Below, piece by piece: positions 1,676-64,000 of a stretch of 64,000 nucleotides of DNA. This DNA is from an uncultured Hormoscilla sp. (GTDB lineage Bacteria > Cyanobacteriota > Cyanobacteriia > Cyanobacteriales > Desertifilaceae). The stretch is from positions 4,096,001 through 4,160,000 of the forward strand of contig OZ001293.3 in NCBI GenBank assembly GCA_963921275.4, in the 5' to 3' direction. The position numbers and the translations under genes are program-made. The notes under the pieces were generated by a model. That model made no database searches. It was given only the letters and a program-made list of their open reading frames with translations, and was not told the DNA's origin. Each line of letters begins with the position of its first letter. Position 1 is the stretch's first letter.

Positions 1676-4073
1676 GTGCGACTCGTTCAGTGTAAACCAC
1701 CGGTGATAACCGAAGGGGGACCACTGGCAAGGCTCCATTAGCCTTGATAACTTTTAGATGATGGTGGTGAAAGCCCACCCCTCCAGGTGCAGGAGTGACA
1801 GCACTTACCCCACGGTAGCGATGGCATCAATCCGTGAAGCGGGTACGAAAGGCGCCCTGGCTGGTAGCCTAAACCGGTCATCGCCGATTTTTCGCGCAGC
1901 GTGCAAGTAGTCACGGTGAGCGAAAGCAAAGATTTACAGTGTCGTTACGACAAACCAGCGTAATAAGGCTAAACACGCTGGCCCAAAAGGGAAAGGATAA
2001 TGGTCATTGGCGGTTCCTTTTCCGACCAATAAGCACCGACAATAAACCCGGCATAAGGAATCCACCTAAAACTACGACCAATCATCTAGAGGAACGAAGT
2101 AAACCAGGTACATACTCTCAACCACCGGTCGATAGGTTGAGCAGCCACCAAAGGCGCAACATCTGCTTACATTCGGCAGGTTATATCTGGGAAAGATTTC
2201 GCGGAGAAGCTAACGCCTTTCTGTAATGGATGGGATATGCTGACGCCCTCACGGTAACGTCAATTGTAAAGTTGTAAGTAGCAATACATACGTCATGAGC
2301 ACGATGTCAAAATCGATGAATGAATGGAAGGATATCCCCTGGCCTCGGCTGGAACGGGTAGTCTTTAAGTTGCAAAAACGAATTTACAGAGCGGCACAAG
2401 AAGGCAATAAGCAAAAAGTTCGCAGGCTCCAAAGGTTACTGGTAAGCTCCCGGGCTGCCAAATGTCTAGCGGTACGACGGGTTACACAAGATAACCAGGG
2501 AAAGAAGACAGCCGGTGTGGATGGTGTGAAATCACTAACCCCAAAGCAACGCCGAGAACTGGTAGGACAGATTGAAATCTCAAACAAGGCTAAGCCTACA
2601 CGTCGTGTATGGATTCCTAAGCCAGGGAGAGAAGAAAAACGTCCTTTAGAAATACCCACGATGCACGACCGCGCGAATCAAGGGCTCCTCAAGATTGCGC
2701 TTGAACCCGAATGGGAAGCATATATGGAGGGGAACTCATACGGATTCAGACCGGGTCGGGGATGCCACGATGCAATTGCGGCAATATTCAGCAGCATTAA
2801 ACAGAAACCCAAATGGGTATTAGATGCAGATATTGCGAAATGTTTCGACAGGATAGACCACAAAGCGCTAGTCGAAAAATTAAATACTACGTCACCAATC
2901 CGTAAACAAGTACGGGCATGGTTAAAAGCCGGGGTGATTGACAAGAAGATATGGCACACAACTGAGGCAGGAACGCCACAAGGGGGTGTCATATCCCCAC
3001 TGCTAGCCAATATAGCCCTACAGGGGTTAGAGGAAGCAGTAATGGAATTAGCAAAGACACAAAGGGAAAAGCAAAAGCTGACGGTAGTCAGATACGCAGA
3101 CGACTTTGTGATCATGCATGAAGACAGGGAGATGATAGACAGAGCGCAAACAGTGGTGGCAGAGTGGCTAAGAAGAATAGGGCTTGAGTTGAAGGCCGAA
3201 AAGACAAAGATAGCCCACAGGCTAAATGGAGAAAACCCGGGATTCGACTTCCTAGGATTCAATATAAGGCAATATAAAGAGGGAAAATACAGAACCGGCA
3301 AATCAACAAACGGAACACCCCTAGGATTCAAAACCCTAATCAAACCCAGTAATAAGTCCATAGGGAAGCATAAAGAACGGTTATCAGAAATGGTAACTAG
3401 CCATATAACAGCACCACAAGCGGCCCTAATAAGCAGGCTAAACCCGATAATAAGGGGATGGTCAAACTACTTTAGGACAGTGGTAAGCAAGGAAATTTAC
3501 AGCGATATGGACAACTACCTATGGAACATCCTATGGCAATGGGCCAAAAGGAGGCACCCTAACAAGTCAAGTAACTGGATAACCTATAAATACTGGTCTG
3601 TAAACCAGGATGCTAAATGGCGATTCCGAAGCAAGACAAAAGAGGGTGATATGAAGATACGTAAACACTCCGAAACTGAGATAATCAGACACGTAAAAGT
3701 GAAAGGGACCGCAAGCCCATACGACGGGAACCTCACATATTGGAGCACAAGATTAGGCAAAAGCCCCGAACTGAGTAAAAGGGTAGCAACGCTACTCAAG
3801 CAGCAAAAGGGAAAATGCCAACAGTGCGGACTAACGTTTATGGATAGTGACAAATGGGAAGTTGACCATATCATGCCCCTTTCACTAGGAGGTAAGGACC
3901 GGTATGACAACCTACAGTTGCTACACAAACACTGCCACGACAAAAAGACTGCCAGCGATGGCAGTAGCCGTACCCATGACAAGGGTGGCGTGACCGAGGA
4001 GCAGGATGAGGCGAAAGTCTCATGTCCGGTTTTGAAGACGAGTCGGTCCGGTGACGGACTGGCTTAGTTTAAT
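1676..4073 (+). mobile_element. Group II intron (RT/maturase/HNH-encoding), copy 1
   Basis: Starts GTGCG at 1676; domain V/VI-like GAGCAGGATGAGGCGAAAGTCTCATGTCCGGTTTTG...GGCTTAGTTTAAT end; boundaries defined by alignment with copy 2. Confidence 0.92.
2295..4067 (+). CDS. ltrA: Group II intron reverse transcriptase/maturase with C-terminal HNH endonuclease
   Basis: RT0 (AVRRVTQDNQGKKTAGVDG), PQGGVISPLLANI, YADD, domain X (LNPIIRGWSNYF), CQQC...EVDH...NLQLLHKHCH HNH. Confidence 0.95.
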   Translation: MSTMSKSMNEWKDIPWPRLERVVFKLQKRIYRAAQEGNKQKVRRLQRLLVSSRAAKCLAVRRVTQDNQGKKTAGVDGVKSLTPKQRRELVGQIEISNKAKPTRRVWIPKPGREEKRPLEIPTMHDRANQGLLKIALEPEWEAYMEGNSYGFRPGRGCHDAIAAIFSSIKQKPKWVLDADIAKCFDRIDHKALVEKLNTTSPIRKQVRAWLKAGVIDKKIWHTTEAGTPQGGVISPLLANIALQGLEEAVMELAKTQREKQKLTVVRYADDFVIMHEDREMIDRAQTVVAEWLRRIGLELKAEKTKIAHRLNGENPGFDFLGFNIRQYKEGKYRTGKSTNGTPLGFKTLIKPSNKSIGKHKERLSEMVTSHITAPQAALISRLNPIIRGWSNYFRTVVSKEIYSDMDNYLWNILWQWAKRRHPNKSSNWITYKYWSVNQDAKWRFRSKTKEGDMKIRKHSETEIIRHVKVKGTASPYDGNLTYWSTRLGKSPELSKRVATLLKQQKGKCQQCGLTFMDSDKWEVDHIMPLSLGGKDRYDNLQLLHKHCHDKKTASDGSSRTHDKGGVTEEQDEAKVSCPVLKTSRSGDGLA

Positions 4074-4471: not shown

Positions 4472-4671
4472 GGTCGGGGTCGAGCTGGGAATCACTCCCC
4501 AACCCTCCAAGAGCGGAACCGGGCTTGCGACTTTCACCGCACCCGGCTACTGGGCAGTAGGGCCTTGTCATTGGTAGGATTACTGGGGATTACTCCCGTT
4601 GTCCCTCATCTCATGTAATTTCTCCCCTTTCCTGGTTGGTAAGTGGCGCTGCCGGATAACCTTTAGTATTA

Positions 4672-7324: not shown

Positions 7325-8077
7325 TCAATTTTCCATTTTCCATTCGCCATTCTCAATTCGCAACATTTGGTTGCCGCCGCGCTGAAATTCATAATCCACC
7401 TGCCGGGTTTCTACATGATAACCCTGCTGTCTTAATTCCATTATAGTACCTGACAGGTGTGGAGAAGGTTCTCCCGATAGATCCAGCAGGGGGAAGATGC
7501 GGACTGCCCTAGCGACTCGACATAGTTCTAGTATAGCATGGAAATGGAATGCTGCATCAAGTTGGTCGGAATAAAGAAATAATAGATGAGAACAGAGGGC
7601 TAAATCAAATTTTTTTTTATTGAAAGGTAGTACTGGCAATTCAGCTTTCACATAACGCCCTGACTTTTTCCCCTCGGTAAAATCAGCCAAAAACTGCTGC
7701 ATGGCTGCCATTCTCACCTGTCCTAGCTGAGTGGGAGAGGTGATTTCTCTTTGCCAAACATATTGATCTTGATTTGCCTTTACTCCCTCGACAATAACTG
7801 GATAAGTTGCTTGAATGCGTCGGGCAATTTCATCAGCGCTGAATTGATAAACTGGATCGCAGGAAATCACATTATTGTAGCCCTTTCGATGCCCTCGGGG
7901 CACGCTACTCGCACTACCCCTCGCACATCGCCGCGTCATTTCCGCATTAAAGCTAGCAGGACCGCCACCAGAATCAAGGATCTTTAAATCTAACTCTGGT
8001 ATAGTAATGTCGAACATTCTCAGGTATTCAGAGTGCGATCGGCCCCAGGGTACTACGTTATCTAGCTTTAATCCCAT
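7325..8077 (-). CDS. SAM-dependent methyltransferase with a 14-codon hairpin insertion
   Basis: VVPWGRS, ILDSGGGPASF, FDLALCSHLLFLYS, YEFQRGGNQML. Confidence 0.8.
   Translation of the reverse strand: MGLKLDNVVPWGRSHSEYLRMFDITIPELDLKILDSGGGPASFNAEMTRRCARGSASSVPRGHRKGYNNVISCDPVYQFSADEIARRIQATYPVIVEGVKANQDQYVWQREITSPTQLGQVRMAAMQQFLADFTEGKKSGRYVKAELPVLPFNKKKFDLALCSHLLFLYSDQLDAAFHFHAILELCRVARAVRIFPLLDLSGEPSPHLSGTIMELRQQGYHVETRQVDYEFQRGGNQMLRIENGEWKMEN
7887..7930. repeat. CG-bounded mini-hairpin element (net 42 nt)
   Basis: Same loop (cgct[a]ytcgcactacc) and same length as the copies at 14743-14786 and 38041-38084. Confidence 0.75.
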
Positions 8078-8721
8078 TGTTTGGCCTCCGTAAACTGGTT
8101 ATTTTGTATCCCCGGCGACGGTTTTAGTAAATTATATACAGGACTGAGGCAAATTGTCAAACCGAGTCCTAGATTTAGCTTCTGGTGGGCGGTACTGAGT
8201 TATGATATCATCAGGGAGCGCGATCGTTTGCTTTGAGAACGGCGATCCATGGCCTCCCATCCGCCGGTGCGATCGCCGGACATGAGAATCGTTGGAGAGA
8301 TTTGGAATTGTCAAATTGAGGACATTCCCACGAAGCTCAATTAATGGTAAAACCATCTTCACTGATGCAGGGCATCTGCGATGACAATTGTAGACTATAA
8401 TTGATAGATAAGATGGACTATTCCCAAATTCGCGCCGAAGCAGAAAGACTGCTGGAGATACTTTATGTAACACCGTTTGAAGACTGCTGCCCCTTGACCA
8501 AACAATTTTCCCATCTGATGGTTAGACCGGGTTTGTATGCTATCCGTCATCGGGTTGATGGTATATTAACTCAAGTTGCTACCTATAAAAATTGCGACCT
8601 CCCAGACAGCCATTTTGGTAAATTTATTCGCCAAAATGCCGTTTTGGGGTAAATCACAAGGTAATTTTGGCTGATTTTGGCTGATTTTGGCGCTTTGCAA
8701 GGAGTTGAGGTTCTATAGGTA

Positions 8722-9733
8722 ACCTAAGTTGCGACCTATTAAAAAAAATATGAATTACCCACTTAGACTTTACAGATATTTGGGATATTTCGTAGCTTTT
8801 GATACAAAATTATATTTTTTTTGTGCTAGACGGCGGGTTGGCTGTTTATAGGTTATAATGTACTAAAATAATAGTTAATTGCTGGGGGATGTAGATGATG
8901 GAAGATATGATTACAACAATTTTTGTTCTTTGTGACGAGCTACTAAAAGCGTTAAATATAAAAGAAGATCCACAAGTAAAAATGAACAATGCCGAAGTGA
9001 TGACAGTCGGATTAGTTGCTGCATATTTTTTCGGAGGACACCACGATCGCTCTTGTCAATTTATGGTCCAACACAAGTATATAAAAAATCTGTTAAGTAA
9101 AAGTAGGTTCAATCGTCGATTACACAATATTGAGGAACCAATTTGGATGTTTTTCTTCCAAGTTATAGCTCAAACATTTAAAGAGCTCAATCCGGGTCAA
9201 GAATATATTCTTGATAGTTTCCCGGTGCCAGTATGTGATAATATTAGGATTGATAGATGCCAAATTTATAACAAGAAAGAATATCGAGGGTATATTGCCA
9301 GTAAAAAACGTTATTTTTATGGATTAAGAGTTCATATGTTGGTAAACAAAAATGGAAAGCCAATAGAATTTTATCTAGATACTGGTAGTTATAATGATGT
9401 TAAAGTTTTGCAATCTTTTGGCTTTGACTTACCATCAAATTCAATAGTTTATGGAAATAAAGCTTATAATGATTATCAATTAGAGGATTTACTAAAAGAG
9501 TCGTCAAGTATAATGTTAAAACTTTTGCGAAAAAAGAACTCAAAAAGAAAAGAATATTCTTGCTTTGAATATATACAAAAAGTAACAATAAAACAAGTTA
9601 AAACCTGTTTTAGTCGAATCACCAATTTGTTTCCCAAGTCAATTCATGCTGTTACATCTAAGGGATTAGAGTTGAAAATAATTCTCTTTATCATAGCTTT
9701 TTGTATCCAATTTTTATAGGTCGCAACTTGAGT
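8722..9733 (+). mobile_element. IS982 family element, copy 2
   Basis: Same TIRs as copy 1; 6-bp TSD TAGGTA inside the MITE TIR. Confidence 0.9.
8895..9719 (+). CDS. IS982 transposase, probably catalytically dead
   Basis: GDKAY is GNKAY and QVET is QVKT relative to the other two copies. Confidence 0.8.
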   Translation: MMEDMITTIFVLCDELLKALNIKEDPQVKMNNAEVMTVGLVAAYFFGGHHDRSCQFMVQHKYIKNLLSKSRFNRRLHNIEEPIWMFFFQVIAQTFKELNPGQEYILDSFPVPVCDNIRIDRCQIYNKKEYRGYIASKKRYFYGLRVHMLVNKNGKPIEFYLDTGSYNDVKVLQSFGFDLPSNSIVYGNKAYNDYQLEDLLKESSSIMLKLLRKKNSKRKEYSCFEYIQKVTIKQVKTCFSRITNLFPKSIHAVTSKGLELKIILFIIAFCIQFL

Positions 9734-9768
9734 TAGGTAGCAACTTAGGTTATATTATATATTGGTAA

Positions 9769-10535: not shown

Positions 10536-12933
10536 ATTAAACTAAGCCAGTCCGTCACCGGACCGACTCGTCTTCAAAACCGGACATGAGACTTTCGCCT
10601 CATCCTGCTCCTCGGTCACGCCACCCTTGTCATGGGTACGGCTACTGCCATCGCTGGCAGTCTTTTTGTCGTGGCAGTGTTTGTGTAGCAACTGTAGGTT
10701 GTCATACCGGTCCTTACCTCCTAGTGAAAGGGGCATGATATGGTCAACTTCCCATTTGTCACTATCCATAAACGTTAGTCCGCACTGTTGGCATTTTCCC
10801 TTTTGCTGCTTGAGTAGCGTTGCTACCCTTTTACTCAGTTCGGGGCTTTTGCCTAATCTTGTGCTCCAATATGTGAGGTTCCCGTCGTATGGGCTTGCGG
10901 TCCCTTTCACTTTTACGTGTCTGATTATCTCAGTTTCGGAGTGTTTACGTATCTTCATATCACCCTCTTTTGTCTTGCTTCGGAATCGCCATTTAGCATC
11001 CTGGTTTACAGACCAGTATTTATAGGTTATCCAGTTACTTGACTTGTTAGGGTGCCTCCTTTTGGCCCATTGCCATAGGATGTTCCATAGGTAGTTGTCC
11101 ATATCGCTGTAAATTTCCTTGCTTACCACTGTCCTAAAGTAGTTTGACCATCCCCTTATTATCGGGTTTAGCCTGCTTATTAGGGCCGCTTGTGGTGCTG
11201 TTATATGGCTAGTTACCATTTCTGATAACCGTTCTTTATGCTTCCCTATGGACTTATTACTGGGTTTGATTAGGGTTTTGAATCCTAGGGGTGTTCCGTT
11301 TGTTGATTTGCCGGTTCTGTATTTTCCCTCTTTATATTGCCTTATATTGAATCCTAGGAAGTCGAATCCCGGGTTTTCTCCATTTAGCCTGTGGGCTATC
11401 TTTGTCTTTTCGGCCTTCAACTCAAGCCCTATTCTTCTTAGCCACTCTGCCACCACTGTTTGCGCTCTGTCTATCATCTCCCTGTCTTCATGCATGATCA
11501 CAAAGTCGTCTGCGTATCTGACTACCGTCAGCTTTTGCTTTTCCCTTTGTGTCTTTGCTAATTCCATTACTGCTTCCTCTAACCCCTGTAGGGCTATATT
11601 GGCTAGCAGTGGGGATATGACACCCCCTTGTGGCGTTCCTGCCTCAGTTGTGTGCCATATCTTCTTGTCAATCACCCCGGCTTTTAACCATGCCCGTACT
11701 TGTTTACGGATTGGTGACGTAGTATTTAATTTTTCGACTAGCGCTTTGTGGTCTATCCTGTCGAAACATTTCGCAATATCTGCATCTAATACCCATTTGG
11801 GTTTCTGTTTAATGCTGCTGAATATTGCCGCAATTGCATCGTGGCATCCCCGACCCGGTCTGAATCCGTATGAGTTCCCCTCCATATATGCTTCCCATTC
11901 GGGTTCAAGCGCAATCTTGAGGAGCCCTTGATTCGCGCGGTCGTGCATCGTGGGTATTTCTAAAGGACGTTTTTCTTCTCTCCCTGGCTTAGGAATCCAT
12001 ACACGACGTGTAGGCTTAGCCTTGTTTGAGATTTCAATCTGTCCTACCAGTTCTCGGCGTTGCTTTGGGGTTAGTGATTTCACACCATCCACACCGGCTG
12101 TCTTCTTTCCCTGGTTATCTTGTGTAACCCGTCGTACCGCTAGACATTTGGCAGCCCGGGAGCTTACCAGTAACCTTTGGAGCCTGCGAACTTTTTGCTT
12201 ATTGCCTTCTTGTGCCGCTCTGTAAATTCGTTTTTGCAACTTAAAGACTACCCGTTCCAGCCGAGGCCAGGGGATATCCTTCCATTCATTCATCGATTTT
12301 GACATCGTGCTCATGACGTATGTATTGCTACTTACAACTTTACAATTGACGTTACCGTGAGGGCGTCAGCATATCCCATCCATTACAGAAAGGCGTTAGC
12401 TTCTCCGCGAAATCTTTCCCAGATATAACCTGCCGAATGTAAGCAGATGTTGCGCCTTTGGTGGCTGCTCAACCTATCGACCGGTGGTTGAGAGTATGTA
12501 CCTGGTTTACTTCGTTCCTCTAGATGATTGGTCGTAGTTTTAGGTGGATTCCTTATGCCGGGTTTATTGTCGGTGCTTATTGGTCGGAAAAGGAACCGCC
12601 AATGACCATTATCCTTTCCCTTTTGGGCCAGCGTGTTTAGCCTTATTACGCTGGTTTGTCGTAACGACACTGTAAATCTTTGCTTTCGCTCACCGTGACT
12701 ACTTGCACGCTGCGCGAAAAATCGGCGATGACCGGTTTAGGCTACCAGCCAGGGCGCCTTTCGTACCCGCTTCACGGATTGATGCCATCGCTACCGTGGG
12801 GTAAGTGCTGTCACTCCTGCACCTGGAGGGGTGGGCTTTCACCACCATCATCTAAAAGTTATCAAGGCTAATGGAGCCTTGCCAGTGGTCCCCCTTCGGT
12901 TATCACCGGTGGTTTACACTGAACGAGTCGCAC
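10536..12933 (-). mobile_element. Group II intron, copy 2 (apparently identical to copy 1, inverted)
   Basis: Same 619-nt 5' offset and 6-nt 3' offset around an identical 590-aa ORF. Confidence 0.92.
10542..12314 (-). CDS. ltrA: Group II intron reverse transcriptase/maturase/HNH
   Basis: Protein identical to 2295-4067. Confidence 0.95.
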   Translation of the reverse strand: MSTMSKSMNEWKDIPWPRLERVVFKLQKRIYRAAQEGNKQKVRRLQRLLVSSRAAKCLAVRRVTQDNQGKKTAGVDGVKSLTPKQRRELVGQIEISNKAKPTRRVWIPKPGREEKRPLEIPTMHDRANQGLLKIALEPEWEAYMEGNSYGFRPGRGCHDAIAAIFSSIKQKPKWVLDADIAKCFDRIDHKALVEKLNTTSPIRKQVRAWLKAGVIDKKIWHTTEAGTPQGGVISPLLANIALQGLEEAVMELAKTQREKQKLTVVRYADDFVIMHEDREMIDRAQTVVAEWLRRIGLELKAEKTKIAHRLNGENPGFDFLGFNIRQYKEGKYRTGKSTNGTPLGFKTLIKPSNKSIGKHKERLSEMVTSHITAPQAALISRLNPIIRGWSNYFRTVVSKEIYSDMDNYLWNILWQWAKRRHPNKSSNWITYKYWSVNQDAKWRFRSKTKEGDMKIRKHSETEIIRHVKVKGTASPYDGNLTYWSTRLGKSPELSKRVATLLKQQKGKCQQCGLTFMDSDKWEVDHIMPLSLGGKDRYDNLQLLHKHCHDKKTASDGSSRTHDKGGVTEEQDEAKVSCPVLKTSRSGDGLA

Positions 12934-14234: not shown

Positions 14235-14970
14235 CATGTACGAGTAGCTATATCTAGTATAACAAGTTTAGCGACTTGGAGTTTTGGGATGGTGATGACG
14301 CACTCTTCAAGCGTGGATAGGATTTCAGAATTTATTGCACAAATTAACTCCGAAAAACCAAATACAGTTCGGCAAAGATTATGCATAGTGGTATCAAAAC
14401 TCAAAAGTAAAAAAGGGAACATGCATAACAGAAATAGATGTAACTACTTGTTTTGTACCCTTGCTAAAATGGATATTAAGCTTGTGGCCACAAGATTTTC
14501 CTTACTTACCTTTAGCTATAGATGCTACTAATATTGGAGACAACTTTACTATCTTATCAATTAATGTCTTGATTAGAGGTAGTGGTATTCCCGTGGTCGG
14601 GCAAGTAGTGATCGCTTTTACAGAAAAAGCTTCTTGGCAGCCATTATGGAAAGAATTATTTTCTTCATTAAAAGCAATACTCCGGACAGTTTTTAGAGCC
14701 CAGAACCACCCGAAGTGCAAGGGTTGCGGCAAAAGGCGCACTCGATGTCTCCGGAGAGCGCTATTCGCACTACCCCGGAGACATCGTTCGCTAATTTTTT
14801 CTTTGTCAGCCCCAGGGCTAACGTCGCCTATATTGCTCTATTGAGCAAAGGCTTACGCTGCAAGCCAGAAGGCTACGTACAGTCAAAACGGTCCGGACTA
14901 TTGTAAAAGGTATGGTGCCATCTGAGATGATGACCATTGTATCTGCCGTAAGCGGACTGTATGCTCGAAC
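14235..14970 (+). pseudogene. IS4-like DDE transposase fragment, frameshifted and interrupted by a MITE
   Basis: WSFGMVMT, NTVRQRL, LLKWILSLW, LAIDATNIGDNFTILSINVL; resumes after the MITE (GMVPSE..IVSA..GLYA). Confidence 0.6.
14675..14903. mobile_element. MITE with CAATACTCCGGAC / GTCCGGACTATTG TIRs
   Basis: 6-bp TSD TAAAAG; relatives at 49275-49493 and a single end at 13841-13854; contains a 42-nt hairpin at 14743-14786. Confidence 0.8.
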
Positions 14971-23426: not shown

Positions 23427-23944
23427 CAATTAGTGAATATTGACATCTTGCTAGGCCGGGTACGTTTCCAGGCGGGAACATTGCGGGAACATTTCCCGAA
23501 CCCTAAAGGGCCCGGCTACACGAACAAAGCCCGCCTGCGCGGGCTAAATTACAAAAGTGAGATGCGCCCAGGAACTCGGCTTTATGATGCAAGGGGCTTT
23601 GCCTTGACAATTAGTGAATATTGACATCTTGCTAGGCCGGGTACGTTTCCAGGCGGGAACATTGCGGGAACATTTCCCGAACCCTAAAGGGCCCGGCTAC
23701 ACGAACAAAGCCCGCCTGCGCGGGCTAAATTACAAAAGTGAGATGCGCCCAGGAACTCGGCTTTATGATGCAAGGGGCTTTGCCTTGACAATTAGTGAAT
23801 ATTGACATCTTGCTAGGCCGGGTACGTTTCCAGGCGGGAACATTGCGGGAACATTTCCCGAACCCTAAAGGGCCCGGCTACACGAACAAAGCCCGCCTGC
23901 GCGGGCTAAATTACAAAAGTGAGATGCGCCCAGGAACTCGGCTT
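23406..23944. repeat. 181-bp tandem triplication including the mfd 3' end and a REP-like hairpin
   Basis: Three near-identical units at 181-bp spacing; AAAGCCCGCCTGCGCGGGCT REP-like motif also near 36550. Confidence 0.9.
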
Positions 23945-37970: not shown

Positions 37971-38040
37971 ATACCATTTGCAAAAAATGTTGCTACAATT
38001 CGTACCCTCTAATTTGCTCTCTTCGCTATCAGCCCGCCTT

Positions 38041-38084
38041 CGGTGTATCGTGGGAGCGCTATTCGCACTACCCACGATACACCG
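38041..38084. repeat. CG-bounded mini-hairpin element (net 42 nt)
   Basis: CG-GTGTATCGTGGG-AGCGCTATTCGCACTA-CCCACGATACAC-CG. Confidence 0.8.
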
Positions 38085-38213
38085 AGGGTTCAAACCCCCT
38101 ACGTTCTCAGGCGGGAGCCAGGGAACGAGGCTAAAGTCGGTTAAAACCGACTAACAGGATACTGCTCAAAAAAATGTAACATATTTTTTATGAAATGGGA
38201 TAAGCAAGTCGCT

Positions 38214-43483: not shown

Positions 43484-43889
43484 ATTGGTATTAAGGATAA
43501 CCATAAATTGTCGAGATATGAATGGGAAAATATTATTTTATTCCGCTGCGATCGCGTATAAAGAATAGCTAAAATGACAATGTTTTTAGTCGGTTTTCAA
43601 CCGACTTTAGCTATTAGCCGGGGGTTTGAACCCCGGCGGGCTATCGGAACAGATACAAGATATATTTGAGAACAGATTTTGGGATTAGACGTGAGCGAGG
43701 TTCGGCGATCGCCCCAAATACTTCCCCCGAAAACAGAGATGCGATCTGGTACTTTTGTTTAATATAATTTAGGCTGCGTAGGCGGACTTGGTTTGTATAG
43801 CCCTACCCTTTAGGGTTAGGGCGGGGTAGCGGGCGCAAAAGTGAGGTTCACCCGAGGCGATTGCCTCTTGCTGGGATAGGGTGCAATAT

Positions 43890-47678: not shown

Positions 47679-49236
47679 TTATTCATCATAGTCAAATGGA
47701 TGGGGTCGAGCCGGGAATCGCTTCCCGACCCTCCCTTGAGGAACCGGACTTGCGATTTTCACCGCATCCGGCTACTGGGTACTAGGCCCTTTTCATAGGT
47801 AGACTTAATAGGAATTACTTCCGTTAGCCCTTGCCGCCTGTCTTTTCTTCCCTTTCCTGGTTTAGCGAGTGGTTGTTCTGATAACCGTTAGTATCACCAT
47901 TTTCAAGTCAGTTTTACCAGTTATCCATACCTTATCCTCCACTTGCGTTTCGGATTAGTTCCGTGGCTTTTTAGGATTACTCATTCCAGCAGCTTCCTAG
48001 TATCACCGACCCACGTCAGCGCTGGCTACCCAGCATCATCTACATTACTGTAGATGTTATCCCAGGAATTACCCCGGGCATTCGCTTCTTGGGCCATCCC
48101 TCCCCCCGTGGCTTGCGCTTAACATCTAACTTGTCCTGATGGACAGCACACGAGAGGTTACTTCGTTCCCTAACAACATTTCGCGATACCTTTAGGTCCA
48201 CACTATACCCCGGGAGCTATTTGAGTACTATATTAGCCAGAGTCTAAAACTAATACTAGCTACCATTTCCTTTTTAGGCCAGCGCATATAGCCTTATTTC
48301 GCTGGTTCCTTATAACGAGGCTTGCACATGTTTGCCTGCTCTAACCTTGGATATCTTTCCTAGCGGCGTCACCGGCTTAGGCTGCCAGTTATCCTACATT
48401 TGAGTCCTCGCTTAGCACCACGATGATGTCGCTTCGTAGCACCGAGGACCGGTGTCACCCCCGTACCTGGGGGGAGGGGAATTTAACCCCCATGCGGTCA
48501 GAGTTCCTGGCTAATGAAACCGGGCTAGCGTTCCGTGTTTGACCACGTTAGGCTAGAACGAATCGCACAGACCCATCAAGGGTGCTAAAAGCGCCCCAAA
48601 CACAAATCCACCAGCATGGGCCCAGTATGCAATTCCGCCCATATTAGCGGGTGCATTCAGACTGGCAAAGCTAGAAATCGCTTGGGTGACAAACCAAATA
48701 CCCAGAAAAACCATCGCTGGGATGCGAATGGTAGTGATAAAATACCCCAGGAAAACCAATGTGAGAACTTTAGCCCGGGGAAACCTGATAATGTAGGCTC
48801 CCATTACACCTGCGATCGCCCCTGACGCGCCCAAGGAAGGGATATCAGAAGACTGGGAAAAGAACCACTGGGTCAATGCCGCCAACATCCCGCAGATCAG
48901 ATAGAAGATGATAAATTTGACATGACCCAGTTTATCTTCCACATTGTTGCCAAAAATCCAGAGAAACAACATATTCCCTAACAGGTGCATCCAACTCCCG
49001 TGCAGGAATTGGGAGGTAAACAGAGTCAGCCACTCTGGCACCGGTTGGTTTACTGCCACGCCAGTAAAGCTAGCAGATAGCTCCCTGGGAACCACTGCAA
49101 ACAGGTGGTAGAATTCTCCTAGTTCTTGGGGTGCCAAACTAACTTGATACAGAAAAATCAGGATATTCGTAGCAATCAGCCCATAGGTAAAATAGGGGGT
49201 TGATTGGGTGGGATTTTCGTCATGTAAGGGAAACAT
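47679..49236 (-). CDS. Rhomboid family intramembrane serine protease (exons 49236-48569 and 47697-47679; unspliced ORF ends at 48553)
   Basis: FLHGSWMHLLGNM, GASG, AHAGG. Confidence 0.88.
47698..48568 (-). mobile_element. Complete-looking ORF-less group II intron (~870 nt)
   Basis: 5' GTGCGATTCGTTC at 48568; DV AGCCGGATGCGGTGAAAATCGCAAGTCCGGTTC; DVI ending CGACCCCATCC; no RT ORF. Confidence 0.85.
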
Positions 49237-50130: not shown

Positions 50131-50606
50131 GGTTCTCCCTAAAAATTTTTGTTCTTTTATGGCTTGGGCAACCCCAGATGCAGCATCAGGACACACCGAT
50201 AACCTTATCCCGGACTGAACAATACCAGTTGTCTGGCGGTCTAGCCCGGGCGGAGCCAGTAGATGACTGGCTCTATGGCTAGTAATCTGAAGCTATGTTG
50301 TCAGCTTCTTTGTCGGCTAGCGGGCGGCATGGTTTGTACCCTAAAGCTAGATCTAGAGTTGCACCTCATATGAACATCATGCCATTGCGGTGCTCTTTTC
50401 CCAAGCCTCTTCCCTGCCAGGCAAGGTGAGTATGTCTCTTGGATGTCTCAGGAGTAGTGCGACTATGATGTCCCCGGGTTTCGCCGTGCGCCTGGGGGAC
50501 ATCAAGCTCTGGTGGAGACATCGAACGCTTCCAAGATTTAGGGGTGGCGATCGCCATTCGGGCCCGTGAATTATCCAGTTGGCTTATTCCTCTGGTCGGC
50601 AGCTAG

Positions 50607-57198: not shown

Positions 57199-58059
57199 AT
57201 TGTTCGAGTAAATTGTTCGTAGTAAGGACTTTAGTCCTTGCGATCGGAAGACACTAAGAGACTTCCAAACACCTCATACCTGACAACCCACCTCTGCGCT
57301 AGCGACAACGAACCCATGGAGACAACCAGGAGTCCCGAGAAGCATCCAGCGGAGACACAGGGAACCGTAGTGTGATACATCGGTACATTTTTGCCTTCCT
57401 CAACCTGTCTGACTGGTAACCCTGCTTGCACCATGGCCGCCTCGAAGGTAAACGAGCAGCCGATTAACTGGAAAAGCGCGTGCTATTCGCTGAGACTTGA
57501 CCACTGCGTTGAGCGTCGTAACCAGTTCACCGCCTGCGCTCGCGCCCCTTAACAATAGAGATATTTTATCCAGGAATAACTGAATCATTCCACCAAGTAC
57601 GAGAGTCATTCGGTGGTGTCACAACTTTTTGCTTTGACGTGAGACAAGATTACCGAAAGGCAGTTGAGTAACTCCAAAGCCAGAGTAAGCACATCCAAGG
57701 CTGGAGTAAGATCGGGGGGTGGTCTTGCGCCCATTGGTAAGACGATCCCTTCCAGTCCCCCGGAGACAAGTTGCTGAATAGCGCCGGTTGAAAAGGCTGG
57801 GGAGAAAGCGCCAGCAAATATGATGTATGGCAATATGCTGCTGTAAGTTTGGTCGAGATCGCGAATGCGCTGCGCGCACGCTACGCGAACGGGATACAAG
57901 AATGGGGCATAACCGGCGATCGACATGGGAACTACACGGACATCGTTATTGAACAGAGACACCCAACCCCGACAGTATAGTGGCAAAAAATTTATTTATG
58001 ATAATTTCCGGAAAATATGTTTTAATGATTGTAGTCCAAGCAAGAAAGCTACTATAATA

Positions 58060-59071
58060 ACTCAAGTTGCGACCTATAAAAATTGGATACAAAAAGCTAT
58101 GATAAAGAGAATTATTTTTAACTCTAATCCCTTAGATGTAACAGCATGAATTGACTTGGGAAACAAATTGGTGATTCGACTAAAACAGGTTTCAACTTGT
58201 TTTCTTGTTACTTTTTGTATATATTCAAAACAAGAATATTCTTTTCTTTTTGAGTTCTTTTTTCGCAAAGGTTTTAACATTATACTTGACGACTCTTTTA
58301 GTAAATCCTCTAATTGATAATCATTATAAGCTTTATCTCCATAAACTATTGAATTTGATGGTAAGTCAAAGCCAAAAGATTGCAAAACTTTAACATCATT
58401 ATAACTACCAGGATCTAGATAAAATTCTATTGGCTTTCCATTTTTGTTTACCAACATATGAACTCTTAATCCATAAAAATAACGTTTTTTACTGGCAATA
58501 TACCCTCGATATTCTTCCTTGTTATAAATTTGGCATCTATCAATCCTAATATTATCACATACTGGCACCGGGAAACTATCAAGAATATATTCTTGACCCG
58601 GATTGAGCTCTTTAAATGTTTGAGCTATAACTTGGAAGAAAAACATCCAAATTGGTTCCTCAATATTGTGTAATCGACGATTGAACCTACTTTTACTTAA
58701 CAGATTTTTTATATACTTGTGTTGAACCATAAATTGACAAGAGCGATCGTGGTGTCCTCCGAAAAAATATGCAGCAACTAATCCGACTGTCATCACTTCG
58801 GCATTGTTCATTTTTACTTGTGGATCTTCTTTTATATTTAACGCTTTTAGTGGCTCGTCACAAAGAACAAAAATTGTTGTAATCATATCTTCCATCATCT
58901 ACATCCCCCAGCAATTAACTATTATTTTAGTACATTATAACCTATAAACAGCCAACCCGCCGTCTAGCACAAAAAAAATATAATTTTGTATCAAAAGCTA
59001 CGAAATATCCCAAATATCTGTAAAGTCTAAGTGGGTAATTCATATTTTTTTTAATAGGTCGCAACTTAGGT
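58060..59071 (-). mobile_element. IS982 family element, copy 3 (transposase 58074-58898)
   Basis: Same TIRs; 7-bp TSD TATAATA; D/D/E residues intact. Confidence 0.9.
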
Positions 59072-59156
59072 TATAATAGCTAAAAGCTGACTTCCCTCAA
59101 GGTCGCCAGTGACCAGCCCCTAAAAAAGTTCATCATTCCTTACATCAGGAGAAATT

Positions 59157-61283
59157 ATGGCCATATTTAACGTAGACACACCAGCAAAACTATCTGATGC
59201 CATTACCAGTTCTAGTAATAACGGTGCTAGCGATGTCATTAACATCACGTCAGATATTACCCTGACTGGGTTGCTGCCCCTTATTGACGAAGACATGGGG
59301 CTGACGATAAATGGGAATGACAACACTATTAATGGTAATAACAAATTCCGGCTGTTCTTTGTCTTAGACGGTACAGTCAATTTCAACGAGCTGAATTTTA
59401 TGAACGGCGTGGCCCGGGGAGGCAATGGTAGCGGCGGGGCCGCAGGCATGGGCGGTGGCCTGTTTATCCATGACGGGACCGTCACCGTGACTGATAGCAC
59501 TTTCCAGAATAATAGCGCCATTGGTGGTAATGGCTATAGGGGCTTTGACATCAGCATCAGTGTGGGTGGTAATGCTAATTTCATCACTCCTATGCCTGAG
59601 AATAATGGCACGGACGGCATACCCGGCATACCCAGCAGCCCCGACGGCGGCGACGGCGGCGACGGCGGCTTCGGCGGCGACGGCGGCGACGGCGGCTTCG
59701 GCGGCAACGGCGGCAACGGCGGCAACGGCGGCATCGGCGGCAACGGCGGCCGAGGCGGCAACGGCGGCCGAGGCGGCTACGGCTACGGCAACGGCAACGG
59801 CGGCAACGGCGGCAACGGCGGCAACGGCGGCAACGGCGGCAACGGCGGCATCGGCTACGACAATTCCGGCAATGGCGGCTTCGGCGGCGGCGGCGGCGGC
59901 GGCATCACTGGCAAAGGCGGCTTGAGCGGCTTCGGCGGCGGCGGCGGCGGCTTCGGCGGCGGCGACGCAGACAATTCCGGCAACGGCGGCAGCGGCGCAG
60001 GCATGGGCGGAGCCATATTCGTCCGCACCGGCGATCTCATGATTTCGGACAGCAGCTTCAACAGCAATGATGCTCAACATGGCACTGGCTCCGGCTTCGG
60101 CCGAGGCCTGGGGGGCGCCATTTTCGCCCTGCACATCACCGCTAATACCAACGGGAACGACCAGGGCATGCCCGACGCCCTGCCGAGCGTGGTCCTCGCA
60201 GATGTAACCTTCTCGGACAATACCGCCACTAATGGTATGGACCCCACTCCAGCGGACATCACACTGGGCACCATGGTAAACAGTGGAGACCTGTTCGGCA
60301 ACCAATTCCGCCGCGACTCCTCTCCTACCGACATCGAACTCAGCAACAGCAGCATCAATGAAAACTTCGCAGCTAATAGCGTTGTGGGGACTTTCTCTAC
60401 TACCGACCCCGATAATGGAGATACCTTTACCTACCAGTTAGTCACAGGCGACGGTGCCGAAGACAACGCCGCCTTCACTATAGTAGGGGACCAACTGGAA
60501 ATCAACAGTTCCCCTGACTTTGAGGCTCAGTCGAGTTACAGGATATTCGTTCAGACTACCGACTCGACTGGGAACAGTTACTCGGAGGCTTTGATTATTA
60601 ATGTGAACAATGTTGCCGAGTCTCCTACTGATATAGTTCTTAGTAATGGCAGCATCAATTCTAATTACCGTGCGGGTGCGATCGTGGGGACTTTCTTTAC
60701 TAGCGATCCGGACGGGGGAAATACTTTTACCTACCGGTTAATCTCGGGTTTTGGTGACGATGATAACGCTGCTTTCACTATAGTAGGAGACCAACTGCTA
60801 ATTAATAGTTCTCCGGCTTTGGAGATGAGGTCGAGTTACAGCGTCCGCGTTCAGACTATTGACGTTACTGGGGCCAGTTACTCGGAGGCTTTGATTATTA
60901 ATGTGAACGATGTTGCCGAATCTCCTACTGACCTTAACTTCAGCAATACTCGTCAATCCCTAACTCTCAACCCCCAACGCCTAACTTTATCACTCTTTGA
61001 GAAGGAGGAGGACACTCTGATCGGCGGGGAGGGAAGCGATCGCGTCTACGGAAACCATGGAAGCGATCTTCTCTACGAAGGATCAGAGGCCAATATTTTT
61101 GTTCTGGAGTCGGACATGATGGGTACTATCATAGACTTTGAAGATGGCACGGACTTTATCAGGCTAGCAGGAGGTTCTCAGGGCCTCGATACCTGGATTA
61201 ATTTTGAATCGAAAACCATGGCCACCCTGCAGGGGATTGATGAGACCCTGATTAATGTCGATGATTTCACTGTGGTTAATTGA
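59157..61283 (+). CDS. Gly-rich, cadherin-repeat surface protein with RTX-like C-terminus
   Basis: Paralog of 15496-19073; two cadherin repeats; DTLIGGEGSDRVYGNHGSDLL, IIDFEDGTDFI tail. Confidence 0.8.
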   Translation: MAIFNVDTPAKLSDAITSSSNNGASDVINITSDITLTGLLPLIDEDMGLTINGNDNTINGNNKFRLFFVLDGTVNFNELNFMNGVARGGNGSGGAAGMGGGLFIHDGTVTVTDSTFQNNSAIGGNGYRGFDISISVGGNANFITPMPENNGTDGIPGIPSSPDGGDGGDGGFGGDGGDGGFGGNGGNGGNGGIGGNGGRGGNGGRGGYGYGNGNGGNGGNGGNGGNGGNGGIGYDNSGNGGFGGGGGGGITGKGGLSGFGGGGGGFGGGDADNSGNGGSGAGMGGAIFVRTGDLMISDSSFNSNDAQHGTGSGFGRGLGGAIFALHITANTNGNDQGMPDALPSVVLADVTFSDNTATNGMDPTPADITLGTMVNSGDLFGNQFRRDSSPTDIELSNSSINENFAANSVVGTFSTTDPDNGDTFTYQLVTGDGAEDNAAFTIVGDQLEINSSPDFEAQSSYRIFVQTTDSTGNSYSEALIINVNNVAESPTDIVLSNGSINSNYRAGAIVGTFFTSDPDGGNTFTYRLISGFGDDDNAAFTIVGDQLLINSSPALEMRSSYSVRVQTIDVTGASYSEALIINVNDVAESPTDLNFSNTRQSLTLNPQRLTLSLFEKEEDTLIGGEGSDRVYGNHGSDLLYEGSEANIFVLESDMMGTIIDFEDGTDFIRLAGGSQGLDTWINFESKTMATLQGIDETLINVDDFTVVN

Positions 61284-61359
61284 AGTTGGCTCAATAGCTG
61301 TTTTGGGGAACTATGGAAGCAGAGTCTTCCTTTAGCTATTAGCCGGGGGTTTGAACCCT

Positions 61360-61579
61360 CGGTGTATCGTGGGTAGTGCGAGTACGATGTCCCCGGGGTA
61401 GTGCTCAGACGATGTCTTCTGGGTAGTGCGATTAGCGCGAGGTGTCTCCTGGGTAGTGCTCAGACGATGTCCCCGGGGTAGTGCGATTAGCGCTCCCCGG
61501 GGACATCGAGCCACCAGGAGACACCTCGCCCCAGAAGACATCGAGTTCCCCGGGGACATCGAGCGACCACGAGACAGGG
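61360..61579. repeat. Five mini-hairpin elements nested inside one another
   Basis: Left arms A-B-C-D-E, one loop, right arms E'-D'-C'-B'-A'. Confidence 0.8.
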
Positions 61580-61613
61580 AAGGCGGTCTGACAGCGAAGT
61601 AGAGTGGGCATGG

Positions 61614-64000
61614 TTATTTCACCTTTCTCCCTATGAGCCAATAGGTGTTCATTTTACCCTTGCCCTTAACATCGATCGCCCCCCGTTCCTTAAATAAGAA
61701 TTGGGACTTTAAGCGATCGTAAGTAGCAGCAGTTACTTGAATGCCGCCTACAGAACCGTGAGATTCCATGCGACTAGCAACATTAACAGCATCGCCCCAC
61801 AAATCGTAGGCAAACTTTTTCAGCCCAATCACGCCAGCTACAACTGGTCCTGTATTGATGCCAATGCGGAGGTGAAAAGGTTTGCCATCATCCCGCTTAA
61901 ACTGAGTGATTTTCCGTTGCATGTCTAATGCCATCTCGGCGATCGCCTGTGGGTGGTCTGGCCTGGGGGTAGGGAGACCGCCTGCGACCATATAGGCATC
62001 TCCAATAGTCTTAATTTTCTCCAAACCATGGGCGAGAGCCAGTTGGTCGAAGGCAGAGAAGATTTCATTCAGTTGGCATACCAGTCTTGTGGGAGAGATA
62101 TCGGCAGAAAGACCAGTAAAGTCAACAATGTCCGCAAACATAATGCTTACGTCATCAAAGCGCTCCGCAATAGCATGTTGGTCTTGTTTTAATCGTTGCG
62201 CGATCGGATGGGGTAAAATATTCAGTAACAAGCCCTCGGACTTTTCCTGTTCTGCCAGCAAAGTCTCTTCTGCGCCCTTGCGCTCAGTGATATCTTCAAC
62301 AATGCCTTCATAGTAAAGCAGTTTTCCTTGCTCGTCGCGAACAGTACGAGCATTCTCAGAAGTCCAGATAATGTTGCCATTTTGGCGATAGACCTGAGAT
62401 TCAAAATGCGACACCGCATCATCCAGTTCCAAAGCCGCAATAAATTCCATCCTACGGTTTGGGTCTACATATAGTTCCGCTGCGACATTAGTCAGGTGAC
62501 TCATCAGTTCCTCTGGCGAGGAATAGCCAAACATCCGTGCTAGGGCCGGATTGACACTCAGGTAGCGCCCGTCCGGTGTAGACTGATAAATGCCTTCCGC
62601 CGCATTCTCAAAAATACTGCGGTACTTCTCCTCCGCTTCCTGCATGGCATCAATCATCCGCTTGCGCTCTGTAATATTACGAGCTACCCAAATCACGCAA
62701 TTGTCCGGCATCGGTGAAACGCTGGCCGAAAACCACACTTCCTGGGAATTGGAGCTTGTCGATTTTGCAATTGGCGATTGCGCTCCGCTCCCGCAAGGGA
62801 TACGGGAATATTTCCCTTGACTGTTTTCAAAGGGTAAGCAGTATTCTAAATTTACCGTTTGCCCTGTATTCAAGACATGCTGGATATTGCGAACAAAGAA
62901 GTCAGCTTGTTCGGCAGGCAAAACCTCATAGACAGTCTTACCTAAACGTTCGGCCTTGGGACTATACAAAACCTCAGAATTCGTCGAGACAATTTTGATA
63001 TAGCGTCCGCTAGCATCAAAGACGGTAATAATGTCAGTCATAGCGGCAAACAGAGCCCGCAGTTCCGCTTCCGAGACTCGCAGGGCCGCTTCCATTCGCT
63101 GGCGCTCGGCAATTTCAATCCGCAACTGATGGTTTGACTCTCTCAGGGCTGCTGTCCGCTCGGAAACTCTGATTTCTAGCTCTTCATTCGCTCTTTGCAA
63201 AGCTAACTCTGCCTGCTTGCGTTCTGTGATGTCTTCAACAGTTCCTTCATAGTAAAGCAAATTGCCATTTTCATCGAGCACCGCACAGGCATTTTCCGAG
63301 ATCCAAGTGATCCGACCGTCCCGGTGCTTGATTTGCGACTCAAAGCTCATCACCCCATCACCCGACTGTAGCAATTGGATGAATTCCGAGCGACGATCAG
63401 GGTCAAGGTAAAGTTGATCTTGGATGCTAGTGATATTTGCTATCAGTTGTTCGGGGGACTCATAGCCATAGATCCGAGCCAAAGCTGGGTTAGCACTCAG
63501 ATAATGACCATCAGGCGTAGTTTGGAAGATCCCTTCAACTGTATTTTCAAACAGATGGCGATATCTCGCTTCTGCCTGCCGCAGATCCGACTCGACCCGC
63601 TTGCGATCGGTGATATCAATGCCGATGGTGAAAACTGCCCGATCGCCATCGTATTTCTGGGCGACAATCAAATAATTGCGCTCGGAGCCCTTGATAACAG
63701 CAGATATCTCTCGGAAAGCATCCTGTTGAGGACGACTAGCGAAAAAGGAGCGGACAAACTCCTTAAACTCATTGCTAGTGCCTAAAAAACCAATATCTTT
63801 ACCAACAAAAGCTTCTGGGGGCAAGTCGAACATGTTAGCTAAATGGCGATTTACCTCTAGATAGCGTAAATCTGAACTAATCCACGAAACAATTCCCGGC
63901 ACTGCTGCCAAAACAGCTTCTAACTGCTCTTTGGTAGCCCGCAGCTCCTCTTCTGCCCGCTTGCGCTCAGTGATATCAATGCCAACGGTAAAAGCTGCCC
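61614..64000 (-). CDS. Multi-PAS class III adenylate/guanylate cyclase (5' end runs off the window)
   Basis: Several PAS/PAC repeats; FADIVDFT, KIKTIGDAYM, RIGINTG, YDLWGDAVNVASRMES; frame open to the window edge. Confidence 0.93.
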   Translation of the reverse strand, partial: AAFTVGIDITERKRAEEELRATKEQLEAVLAAVPGIVSWISSDLRYLEVNRHLANMFDLPPEAFVGKDIGFLGTSNEFKEFVRSFFASRPQQDAFREISAVIKGSERNYLIVAQKYDGDRAVFTIGIDITDRKRVESDLRQAEARYRHLFENTVEGIFQTTPDGHYLSANPALARIYGYESPEQLIANITSIQDQLYLDPDRRSEFIQLLQSGDGVMSFESQIKHRDGRITWISENACAVLDENGNLLYYEGTVEDITERKQAELALQRANEELEIRVSERTAALRESNHQLRIEIAERQRMEAALRVSEAELRALFAAMTDIITVFDASGRYIKIVSTNSEVLYSPKAERLGKTVYEVLPAEQADFFVRNIQHVLNTGQTVNLEYCLPFENSQGKYSRIPCGSGAQSPIAKSTSSNSQEVWFSASVSPMPDNCVIWVARNITERKRMIDAMQEAEEKYRSIFENAAEGIYQSTPDGRYLSVNPALARMFGYSSPEELMSHLTNVAAELYVDPNRRMEFIAALELDDAVSHFESQVYRQNGNIIWTSENARTVRDEQGKLLYYEGIVEDITERKGAEETLLAEQEKSEGLLLNILPHPIAQRLKQDQHAIAERFDDVSIMFADIVDFTGLSADISPTRLVCQLNEIFSAFDQLALAHGLEKIKTIGDAYMVAGGLPTPRPDHPQAIAEMALDMQRKITQFKRDDGKPFHLRIGINTGPVVAGVIGLKKFAYDLWGDAVNVASRMESHGSVGGIQVTAATYDRLKSQFLFKERGAIDVKGKGKMNTYWLIGRKVK

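Follow-up and report, generated by a model that had tools for sequence, protein, structure and literature searches.

The segment at positions 61360-61579 of the window (the whole 64,000-nt stretch of Hormoscilla DNA analyzed here) is a nest of five members of a non-autonomous mobile foldback family which, judging from the genomes searched, is restricted to this genus. Reading of the sequence revealed five left arms, a single complete loop and five right arms in mirrored order (Table 1), the unit being a 44-nt hairpin composed of a 13-nt arm, the 18-nt loop GTAGTGCGANTAGCGCTC and a second 13-nt arm. The initial annotation had described this five-layered arrangement with its full inner loop, and it was confirmed by a nest parser, which strips simple hairpins and rescans iteratively, and by folding, in which the nest forms a single long hairpin of -90.3 kcal/mol, as compared with -44.1 +/- 3.9 kcal/mol for 200 shuffled sequences (z -11.8). 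The outermost layer (E1) was not called by the parser, because its decayed right arm is paired at 9 of 12 inner positions (manual base-by-base count) and the arm threshold was 10 of 12 pairs. Once this decayed fifth layer is counted, the nest is the deepest of the four four-deep nests of the genome.

The exact left arm of each layer was found in three to eight parsed elements genome-wide, the nest copy included (eight for E3), and the subfamily with the E1 arm CGGTGTATCGTGG is, in the genome-wide parse, almost confined to one host repeat. A separate stem sequence had been ascribed to each element; four distinct arm sequences are indeed present among the five layers, but E2 and E5 have identical arms. 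The arms of E4 can also be written (GC)GAGGTGTCTCCTGG / CCAGGAGACACCTC(GC). The innermost element, E5 (G000:C1:4157464-4157509, where G000 is the genome of the window and C1 its main contig), scored 69.4 bits with the covariance model R1. The spacers between the layers are 5 nt long on the right and are not complementary to the 12-nt spacers on the left, so the nest is no simple palindrome. The loop variant GTAGTGCTCAGA occurs twice in the nest and at none of the other parsed parent-child junctions (70 parsed), which makes some internal copying or conversion likely. On either side of the nest are convergent reading frames, with ends at 61283 and 61614. As to the history of the site, E1 would have entered the host repeat, and E2, E3, E4 and E5 would each have entered the loop of the preceding element.

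Table 1. Positions of the nest layers, the host repeat and further family members in the window
Feature	Position	Strand	Sequence and remarks	Basis
Host repeat, left part	61330..61359	+	..TAGCCGGGGGTTTGAACCC, plus the T preceding E1	same repeat empty at 43617-43642 and in the G002 ortholog
E1, outermost element	61360..61579	+	left arm CGGTGTATCGTGG 61360-61372; half-loop GTAGTGCGAGTA 61373-61384	
E1, right side	61562..61566; 61567..61576	+	AGCGA remainder; decayed right arm CCACGAGACA	sequence reading
E2	61385..61561	+	arms CGATGTCCCCGGG / CCCGGGGACATCG; loop variant GTAGTGCTCAGA..AGTTC; at the E1 loop tip (site i)	parser depth 4
E3	61410..61543	+	arms CGATGTCTTCTGG / CCAGAAGACATCG; at site i of the E2 loop	parser depth 3
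E4	61437..61529	+	arms GCGAGGTGTCTCCTGG / CCAGGAGACACCTCGC; at site ii (after TAGCGC) of the E3 loop	parser depth 2
E5, innermost element	61465..61508	+	intact 44-nt core; full 18-nt loop GTAGTGCGATTAGCGCTC; at site i of the E4 loop	parser depth 1
Host repeat, right part	61580..61600	+	AAGGCGGTCTGACAGCGAAG	alignment to relatives
Host repeat, empty copy	43617..43642	+	GGGGGTTTGAACCC-C-GGCGGGCT	sequence comparison
Solo E1-type element	38040..38085	-	in another host-repeat copy	sequence comparison
Solo element, CGATG subfamily	14743..14786	-	in unique DNA	loop-core match
Solo element, CGATGTGCGAGGG subfamily	7886..7931	-	ends approximate	loop-core match

The loop core occurs five times in the 64-kb window, as compared with 0.07 occurrences expected. 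An empty copy of the host repeat had been placed near 43620-43642 and a copy carrying the outer element alone at 38041-38084; both were found there, the latter in the opposite orientation (cf. Table 1). At 50466-50523 of the window, the arm motifs TGATGTCCC .. GGGACATCA .. GAGACATCG are present without the canonical loop, probably as a decayed or alternative-loop copy. An Rfam scan of the window at gathering score gave nine matches, none of them on the hairpins. Group II intron domains (RF00029, two of them also RF04357) were recognized at 3996-4073, 4473-4551, 10536-10613 and 47700-47776, and the genome seems intron-rich. Three matches to CRISPR-DR28 lie at 23523-23908, 181 nt apart, which is too far for an ordinary CRISPR array, and they may represent another repeat.

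A genome-wide pattern search, suggested by the initial annotation, was carried out in G000 (7.03 Mb, seven contigs, 47% G+C). The octamer GCGATCGC occurs 4738 times in this genome versus 84 times expected, an excess that is a cyanobacterial hallmark. One contig, G000:C3 (31420 bases), has a G+C content of 17.6% as compared with 47% for the chromosome and is probably foreign or derived from another organism in the sample. Matches to the loop core GTAGTGCGANTAGCGC, allowing up to two changes, number 477, all on C1; among them are 236 simple hairpins in which 11 or more of the 14 arm pairs are formed. The parser recovered 395 elements, and the 325 top-level ones comprise 273 solo copies, 39 two-deep, nine three-deep and four four-deep nests. 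Their core follows the consensus C-N-R-T-G-T-C-Y-C-C-N-G-G, then G-T-AGTGC-GANTA-GCGCT-C, then the complementary arm. Covariance modeling, likewise suggested at the outset, drew on 25 copies taken from four genomes and selected for arms with 13 or 14 of 14 bases paired; in 12 of the 14 arm pairs both partners change. Within the loop, a 5-bp helix (AGTGC/GCGCT) with a GANTA tip can form; a T.G pair in this helix is invariant in 25 of 25 copies, and both partners of one helix pair are changed in the loop variant GTAGTACGAATAGTGC (11 copies).

The first description of arms and loop was incomplete in that the arms vary around one consensus, with the subfamilies CGATG, CGGTG, CTGYG and AGGTG, in that the same arms also carry other loops and in that the loop site entered depends on the arm. 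The alternative loops are GTTTTCGCCGTGCGT (32 times in G000), GTTTCTAATAGCGT (in relatives) and a 28-nt inner hairpin, GCTCTTGTCC..GGACAAGAGC; arms and loops thus behave as exchangeable modules. Palindromes of arms without any loop were considered as the true unit and rejected, as only 11 were found, and they are probably loop deletions. A recurrent variant found on many arms has CTTTTG for GGGTAG at the arm-loop junction; it differs between orthologs of locus L048 (compared against G000:C1:2805719-2805808), and the left arm stays uncompensated in many copies. With crude gene calls, 98 of the 325 top-level copies lie in open reading frames of at least 120 aa and 227 outside them, while such frames make up 63% of the DNA, so the copies may be enriched between genes.

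Orthologous sites differ through gains and losses of family copies. The gene on the right-hand side of the nest shares 98% identity with its counterparts in G002 and G003, two relatives of the same genus, and homology resumes at position 61567 of the window. At the site of the nest, G002 has an empty host repeat (GGGGGTTTGAACCCTC followed by AGCGGTCTGAC), G003 has one element with E1-type arms and its loop on the opposite strand, and G004, a third relative of the genus, has a remnant of the right arm and a separate two-layer nest 12 nt upstream. We then have, from 84 loci fetched around elements of four relatives, 48 with colinear flanks in G000 (27 of 44 and 21 of 40), and ten of these sites are filled in the relative and empty in G000 (L004, L024, L029, L033, L044, L052, L055, L105, L114 and L117). 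Comparison of filled and empty orthologs had been proposed in the initial annotation, and the existence of such sites both at the nest and at ten other places, together with a unit of roughly 44 nt, bears out its suggestion of a mobile unit of about 40 nt that enters its own loop. All five genomes were compared at three sites. The first holds an element in G002 alone, the other four genomes being empty there in identical form, which identifies the change as an insertion; at the second, two genomes are filled and three are empty, and the third is filled in two, empty in one, affected by a larger deletion in one and unassembled in one. Since orthologous sites are empty or differently filled, the elements are mobile, and local tandem duplication with inversion, which had been named as the competing origin of the arms, is excluded.

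Orthologous copies also differ internally. The loop lies on opposite strands between species at two orthologs (E1 in G003, and L111), which indicates that loops flip between arms. Mirrored changes on both arms were found at L027, where 200 flank nucleotides contain no difference, and at L054, also with near-identical flanks; in five ungapped orthologous pairs, six single-side arm changes stand against one compensated change, numbers too small to decide. Contigs of four public sequencing runs over 60900-62100 break at the nest, and paralogous copies cross-map.

Insertion occurs without target duplication and usually replaces a target dinucleotide. In the ten filled/empty pairs there is no target-site duplication beyond 1-4 nt of ambiguous microhomology; the CG duplication assumed in the initial annotation is therefore not borne out, the CG...CG being the element's own first and last bases. 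The moved unit is usually a 46-nt hairpin, i.e. the 44-nt core plus one foot base pair, often with an extra 3' A. Typically a target dinucleotide GC, TC or CC gives way to N-core-N'-A, as at L033 (CGCG-GC-AACC to CGCG-T[core]A-A-AACC), L004 (ACG-GC-CCG to ACG-T[core]A-A-CCG), L024 (GTGG-TC-GGCG to GTGG-G[core]A-A-GGCG) and in the host repeat, 17 copies of which have a 1-2 nt spacer (mostly CC) versus seven with 46-47 nt (T[core]AA). The same is seen in the outer loop of L118, which reads GTAGCGC-TC-CCAC in G000 and GTAGCGC-G[core]C-A-CCAC in G004. L029, L044, L055 and L117 have each cleanly gained 44-45 nt, with an ambiguous overlap of 1-4 nt, and less tidy sites have one (L105), three (L052) or about eight (L114) target nucleotides replaced. 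Carrier loops minus their insert measure 17 nt in 46 of 69 cases, the loops of simple elements 18 nt in 245 of 326, and carrier outer loops end in AGCTC, AGCGA or ACC. In the CGATG subfamily, A follows the core in 49 of 57 unique-context copies and AAG in 29. Altogether, the junctions are not uniform (0-5 target nucleotides lost, about eight at L114, and 0-4 extra nucleotides gained), and no single rule covering all of them was found among the filled and empty sites compared.

Repeated self-insertion builds the nests. Seventy of the 395 elements lie in the loops of other copies, although such loops account for 0.10% of the chromosome, which amounts to a 174-fold excess. Two exact loop positions are strongly preferred, and the choice between them depends on the arm-end subfamily: 43 of 43 insertions at the loop tip (site i, GANTA^) have CGATG-type arms, and 13 of 13 insertions after TAGCGC (site ii) have arms of the CTGYG or AGGTG type (43/0 versus 0/13, Fisher 5e-13, with the caution that nested copies may multiply as composites, so that the events are not independent). 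The other 14 nested insertions include seven of the CGGTG type, six of which stand after GTGCGAG with T[core]AA ends.

Outside loops, 168 unique-context solo copies were compared: in the upstream flank, 110 of them have A at -22 and 109 have T at -21, with A at -20 in no more than eight, so placing an A/T signal 6-9 nt before the element, and the downstream consensus is A-A-G-G. This upstream motif is tied to the orientation of the loop, which means that insertion is oriented, and the loop-tip site has AGTG at the same distance. By alignment reading, the empty alleles of L055 and L004 have AT or AAT at the matching upstream distance; if this pattern is general, the motif would be a property of the target.

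Other inserted sequences were encountered during these comparisons. A unit of 15 nt, TTTTTCCGGAACGGT, with 99 + 81 occurrences on the chromosome, varies in presence between orthologous places (L039, L105). In one case it stands within a hairpin element's right arm, and it looks like a second, smaller mobile repeat. A 24-nt GC-rich unit (GCGCAGCG..GCGCAGCGC-like) follows GCGA in a hairpin loop that is filled in G000 and without it in G004 (L119 versus G000:C1:5697192-5697327), and a similar 24-nt insert stands beside GATCG (L004 versus G000:C1:5018253-5018323), which recalls SDR5 inside HIP1. In G000 the loop tip of one element contains a 36-nt insert, which is absent from G004 (L118 versus G000:C1:4717285-4717359). 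A 1025-bp insertion sequence, found in the window at 8713-9739 and 58057-59079, has more than 35 copies of about 99% identity on C1 and looks recently active; its 274-aa frame was taken by eye for a DDE-type transposase.

The exact 22-nt loop pattern was present in five of five genomes of the genus (80, 18, 26, 28 and 43 matches) and in none of nine genomes of other genera of the family and none of 27 others of the order. The covariance model R1 gave no match at E <=0.001 in 150 further genomes of the phylum (80 genera; best 41 candidates per genome). When the arm pattern was searched with any loop in one genome per species, 67 loci were obtained, 36 of them from Hormoscilla records; the other 31 were rejected as family members, as they have unrelated loops and look like chance GC-rich palindromes. 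Viral contigs contained no loop match, and metagenome contigs contained three, of which L202 is the sole true family member. Literature searches on small dispersed, mobile, nested or foldback repeats and on Hormoscilla genomes gave no description of the family.

The initial annotation had named no mobilizing enzyme, and this stands: no mobilizing gene was found among the RAYT-like gene, Y1_Tnp, element-flanked genes and larger repeats examined. Co-occurrence with candidate mobilizers such as RAYT/TnpA had been put forward as a guide; Y1_Tnp was recovered from all 15 relatives in which it was sought, genera that lack the hairpin family among them. The single RAYT-like gene of G000 (a 206-aa frame at G000:C1:241638-242256, with a counterpart in each of the five genomes of the genus) is flanked on both sides, within G000:C1:241000-243200, by arrays of a repeat of ~90 nt with GCAGGCGGGCTTTG..GTAGCCC, and the nearest family hairpins, at 238402 and 244932, are about 3 kb away. 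Nothing links this gene to the family; together with the GCAGGCGGGCTTTG arrays it looks like a classical REP/RAYT pair distinct from the hairpins. Genes flanked on both sides by elements were rejected as candidates, as all 28 are housekeeping genes, and the larger repeats that contain hairpins are an insertion sequence remnant and a nest. GIY-YIG gave two matches in G000; the first lies in an open frame of 672 aa, and the second, in a frame of 83 aa, is interrupted by a stop codon.

Taking the results together, we consider it probable that this is a non-autonomous foldback family whose hairpins are moved by an enzyme and have become stacked by self-insertion. The element would move as a folded single strand or an extruded hairpin, and a trans-acting, hairpin-recognizing nuclease or transposase would cut and rejoin it at the foot, reading the conserved arm ends and the loop; contacts that the element's ends make with the target would partly determine target choice. 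As the enzyme, the most ordinary candidate would be one of the HUH/Y1 class. Elements of the IS200/IS605 type are usually strand-biased, and no bias relative to replication was found here (153 leading versus 172 lagging copies, p 0.32; 325 copies, with a weak GC skew). There is also no orientation bias relative to genes (91 same versus 89 opposite), and the arm mismatches show no excess of G.T (87) over A.C (72, p 0.27), so that neither strand is marked as the folded one. Known cut-and-paste enzyme families give cleaner junctions than those described above.

We regard spread without any dedicated enzyme, through template switching at replication or through gene conversion over short homologies between hairpins, as unlikely but worth weighing. 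A stalled nascent strand would copy a hairpin elsewhere and return, and nests would spread via their 12-18 nt of loop identity. In its favor, the junctions are untidy, with 1-4 nt of microhomology and small replacements, the uniform nested scar (a 17-nt outer loop in 46 of 69) looks as if it had been inherited or converted, the mirrored arm changes at L027 and the indel-like ones on both arms of L054 resemble quasipalindrome products, and the multi-base variant CTTTTG is recurrent (L048). Such a process does not readily account for the very constant ends of the unit (44-47 nt) in unique DNA without homology to the element, for a target motif of fixed orientation located roughly 6-9 nt away from the junction, for the absolute rule linking arm type and site, or for the ratio of one compensated to six single-side changes in the five ungapped pairs. 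Most junctions have an additional 3' A behind a 46-nt hairpin that is perfectly paired, and this could instead point to an RNA route, in which a hairpin transcript would be reverse-transcribed (e.g. by a group II intron reverse transcriptase), completed by snap-back synthesis, given an untemplated A and integrated. Group II introns are abundant, with four Intron_gpII matches in the 64-kb window, and the invariant T.G of the loop helix would be U.G in RNA; even so, we judge this route quite improbable in view of the balanced gene orientation (91 versus 89), arms without a G.U excess and the many CTTTTG copies with an uncompensated left arm. In the CGATG copies, moreover, the A after the core (49 of 57) is present whatever base precedes the core and is thus not simply templated, which also speaks against it.

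A related idea, which we rate as a long shot, is a self-templating minimal replicator that inherits only its 5' arm and loop: the loop helix AGTGC/GCGCT would snap back and prime synthesis of the 3' arm from the 5' arm, which would end with an untemplated A. If true, it would explain the perfect 46-nt hairpins with their A and the immediate compensation of the arms, spread would require no more than the host polymerase and a nicking activity, and the arm ends would guide target choice. We find it hardly credible that the hairpins are not mobile at all and represent tandem duplication and inversion in place, or conserved functional sites such as terminators or protein-binding sites. The nest does lie between convergent genes, where terminators are expected, the arms of E2 and E5 are identical, and the doubled GTAGTGCTCAGA suggests some local copying; these points are outweighed by the empty or differently filled orthologous sites, by left and right spacers that do not match as in a simple palindrome and by the dispersal of the arm type of each layer elsewhere in the genome. 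For terminators one would also expect a T-run after the hairpins, where the consensus is AAG, and neither the 91 versus 89 orientations nor the 98 of 325 top-level copies within reading frames of at least 120 aa fits conserved sites of this kind.

The nest clearly documents the movement of near-minimal selfish DNA in nature; enzyme-mediated movement with self-insertion is the reading that we prefer. The family is unusually readable, as it has hundreds of copies and is represented by many sites, both filled and empty, across five genomes, and as the nests keep the sequence in which the insertions took place. Any mechanism has to accommodate the lack of duplication, the replaced dinucleotide, the extra A and the strict link between end sequence and target position; these junction and target rules are the new content, and the nest is unusually deep. 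In practical terms, the hairpins break short-read assemblies, and copies sit within genes as well as between them.

Among known systems, MITEs derived from DDE elements make target duplications. The present family resembles them in being non-autonomous with inverted-repeat ends and differs in that duplication is absent in ten pairs; a parent insertion sequence with the ends of the hairpin family was not found in a non-exhaustive search of larger repeats with hairpins and the abundant 1025-bp insertion sequence, which has other ends. IS200/IS605 elements insert directly 3' of a fixed word of 4-5 nt, with an orientation bias relative to replication. Their non-autonomous palindromic derivatives, which make no target duplication, are similar to the hairpins, whereas here the base next to the left end shows weak conservation, a motif stands 6-9 nt further upstream and there is no strand bias. 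REP elements are reportedly mobilized by RAYTs (Nunvar, 2010). With REPs and REPINs the family shares short palindromic hairpins in high copy number, copies inserted into or next to copies, a GTAG motif and the expected lack of target duplication. Here, however, GTAG starts the loop, 13-16 bp from the foot, whereas a REP has GTAG (or CGTC) at the foot, and the hairpins are not beside the RAYT-like gene, whose flanks carry the classical GTAG REP. REP elements are short, palindromic and mostly extragenic (Di Nocera, 2013; PMC3733652), and REPINs (Bertels and Rainey, 2011; PMC3116915) are hairpins with compensatory changes, consisting of two conserved REPs at the ends around a variable spacer, and flank RAYTs. 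The hairpin family is, in contrast to REPINs, conserved in the center and at the arm ends.

The likeness to the small dispersed repeats (SDRs) of cyanobacteria, which the initial annotation had pointed out, is apt. SDR1-8 of Nostoc punctiforme and its relatives are said to have been described by Elhai et al. in 2008 (Genome Res 18:1484) as repeats of 21-27 nt, and we know of no enzyme, intermediate or junction rule reported for them since their description. Both are very small, high-copy, non-coding mobile repeats of cyanobacteria with precise, sequence-specific insertion points; both nest in themselves (here 70 of 395) and share a secondary structure with compensatory changes; and both are dispersed and present or absent between close relatives (here 395 copies, with ten sites in addition to that of the nest). 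G000 additionally contains SDR-like inserts of 15 and 24 nt. SDR5 is mentioned in PMC4390886. The hairpins differ from SDRs in their 44-nt core and moved unit of 46-47 nt, twice the size, in their foldback of 13-16 bp with a conserved structured loop and an arm-dependent insertion site, and in belonging to another cyanobacterial lineage. How very small repeats such as SDRs move is a long-standing question on which the hairpin family bears, and by their description the Nostoc SDRs are the closest known kind.
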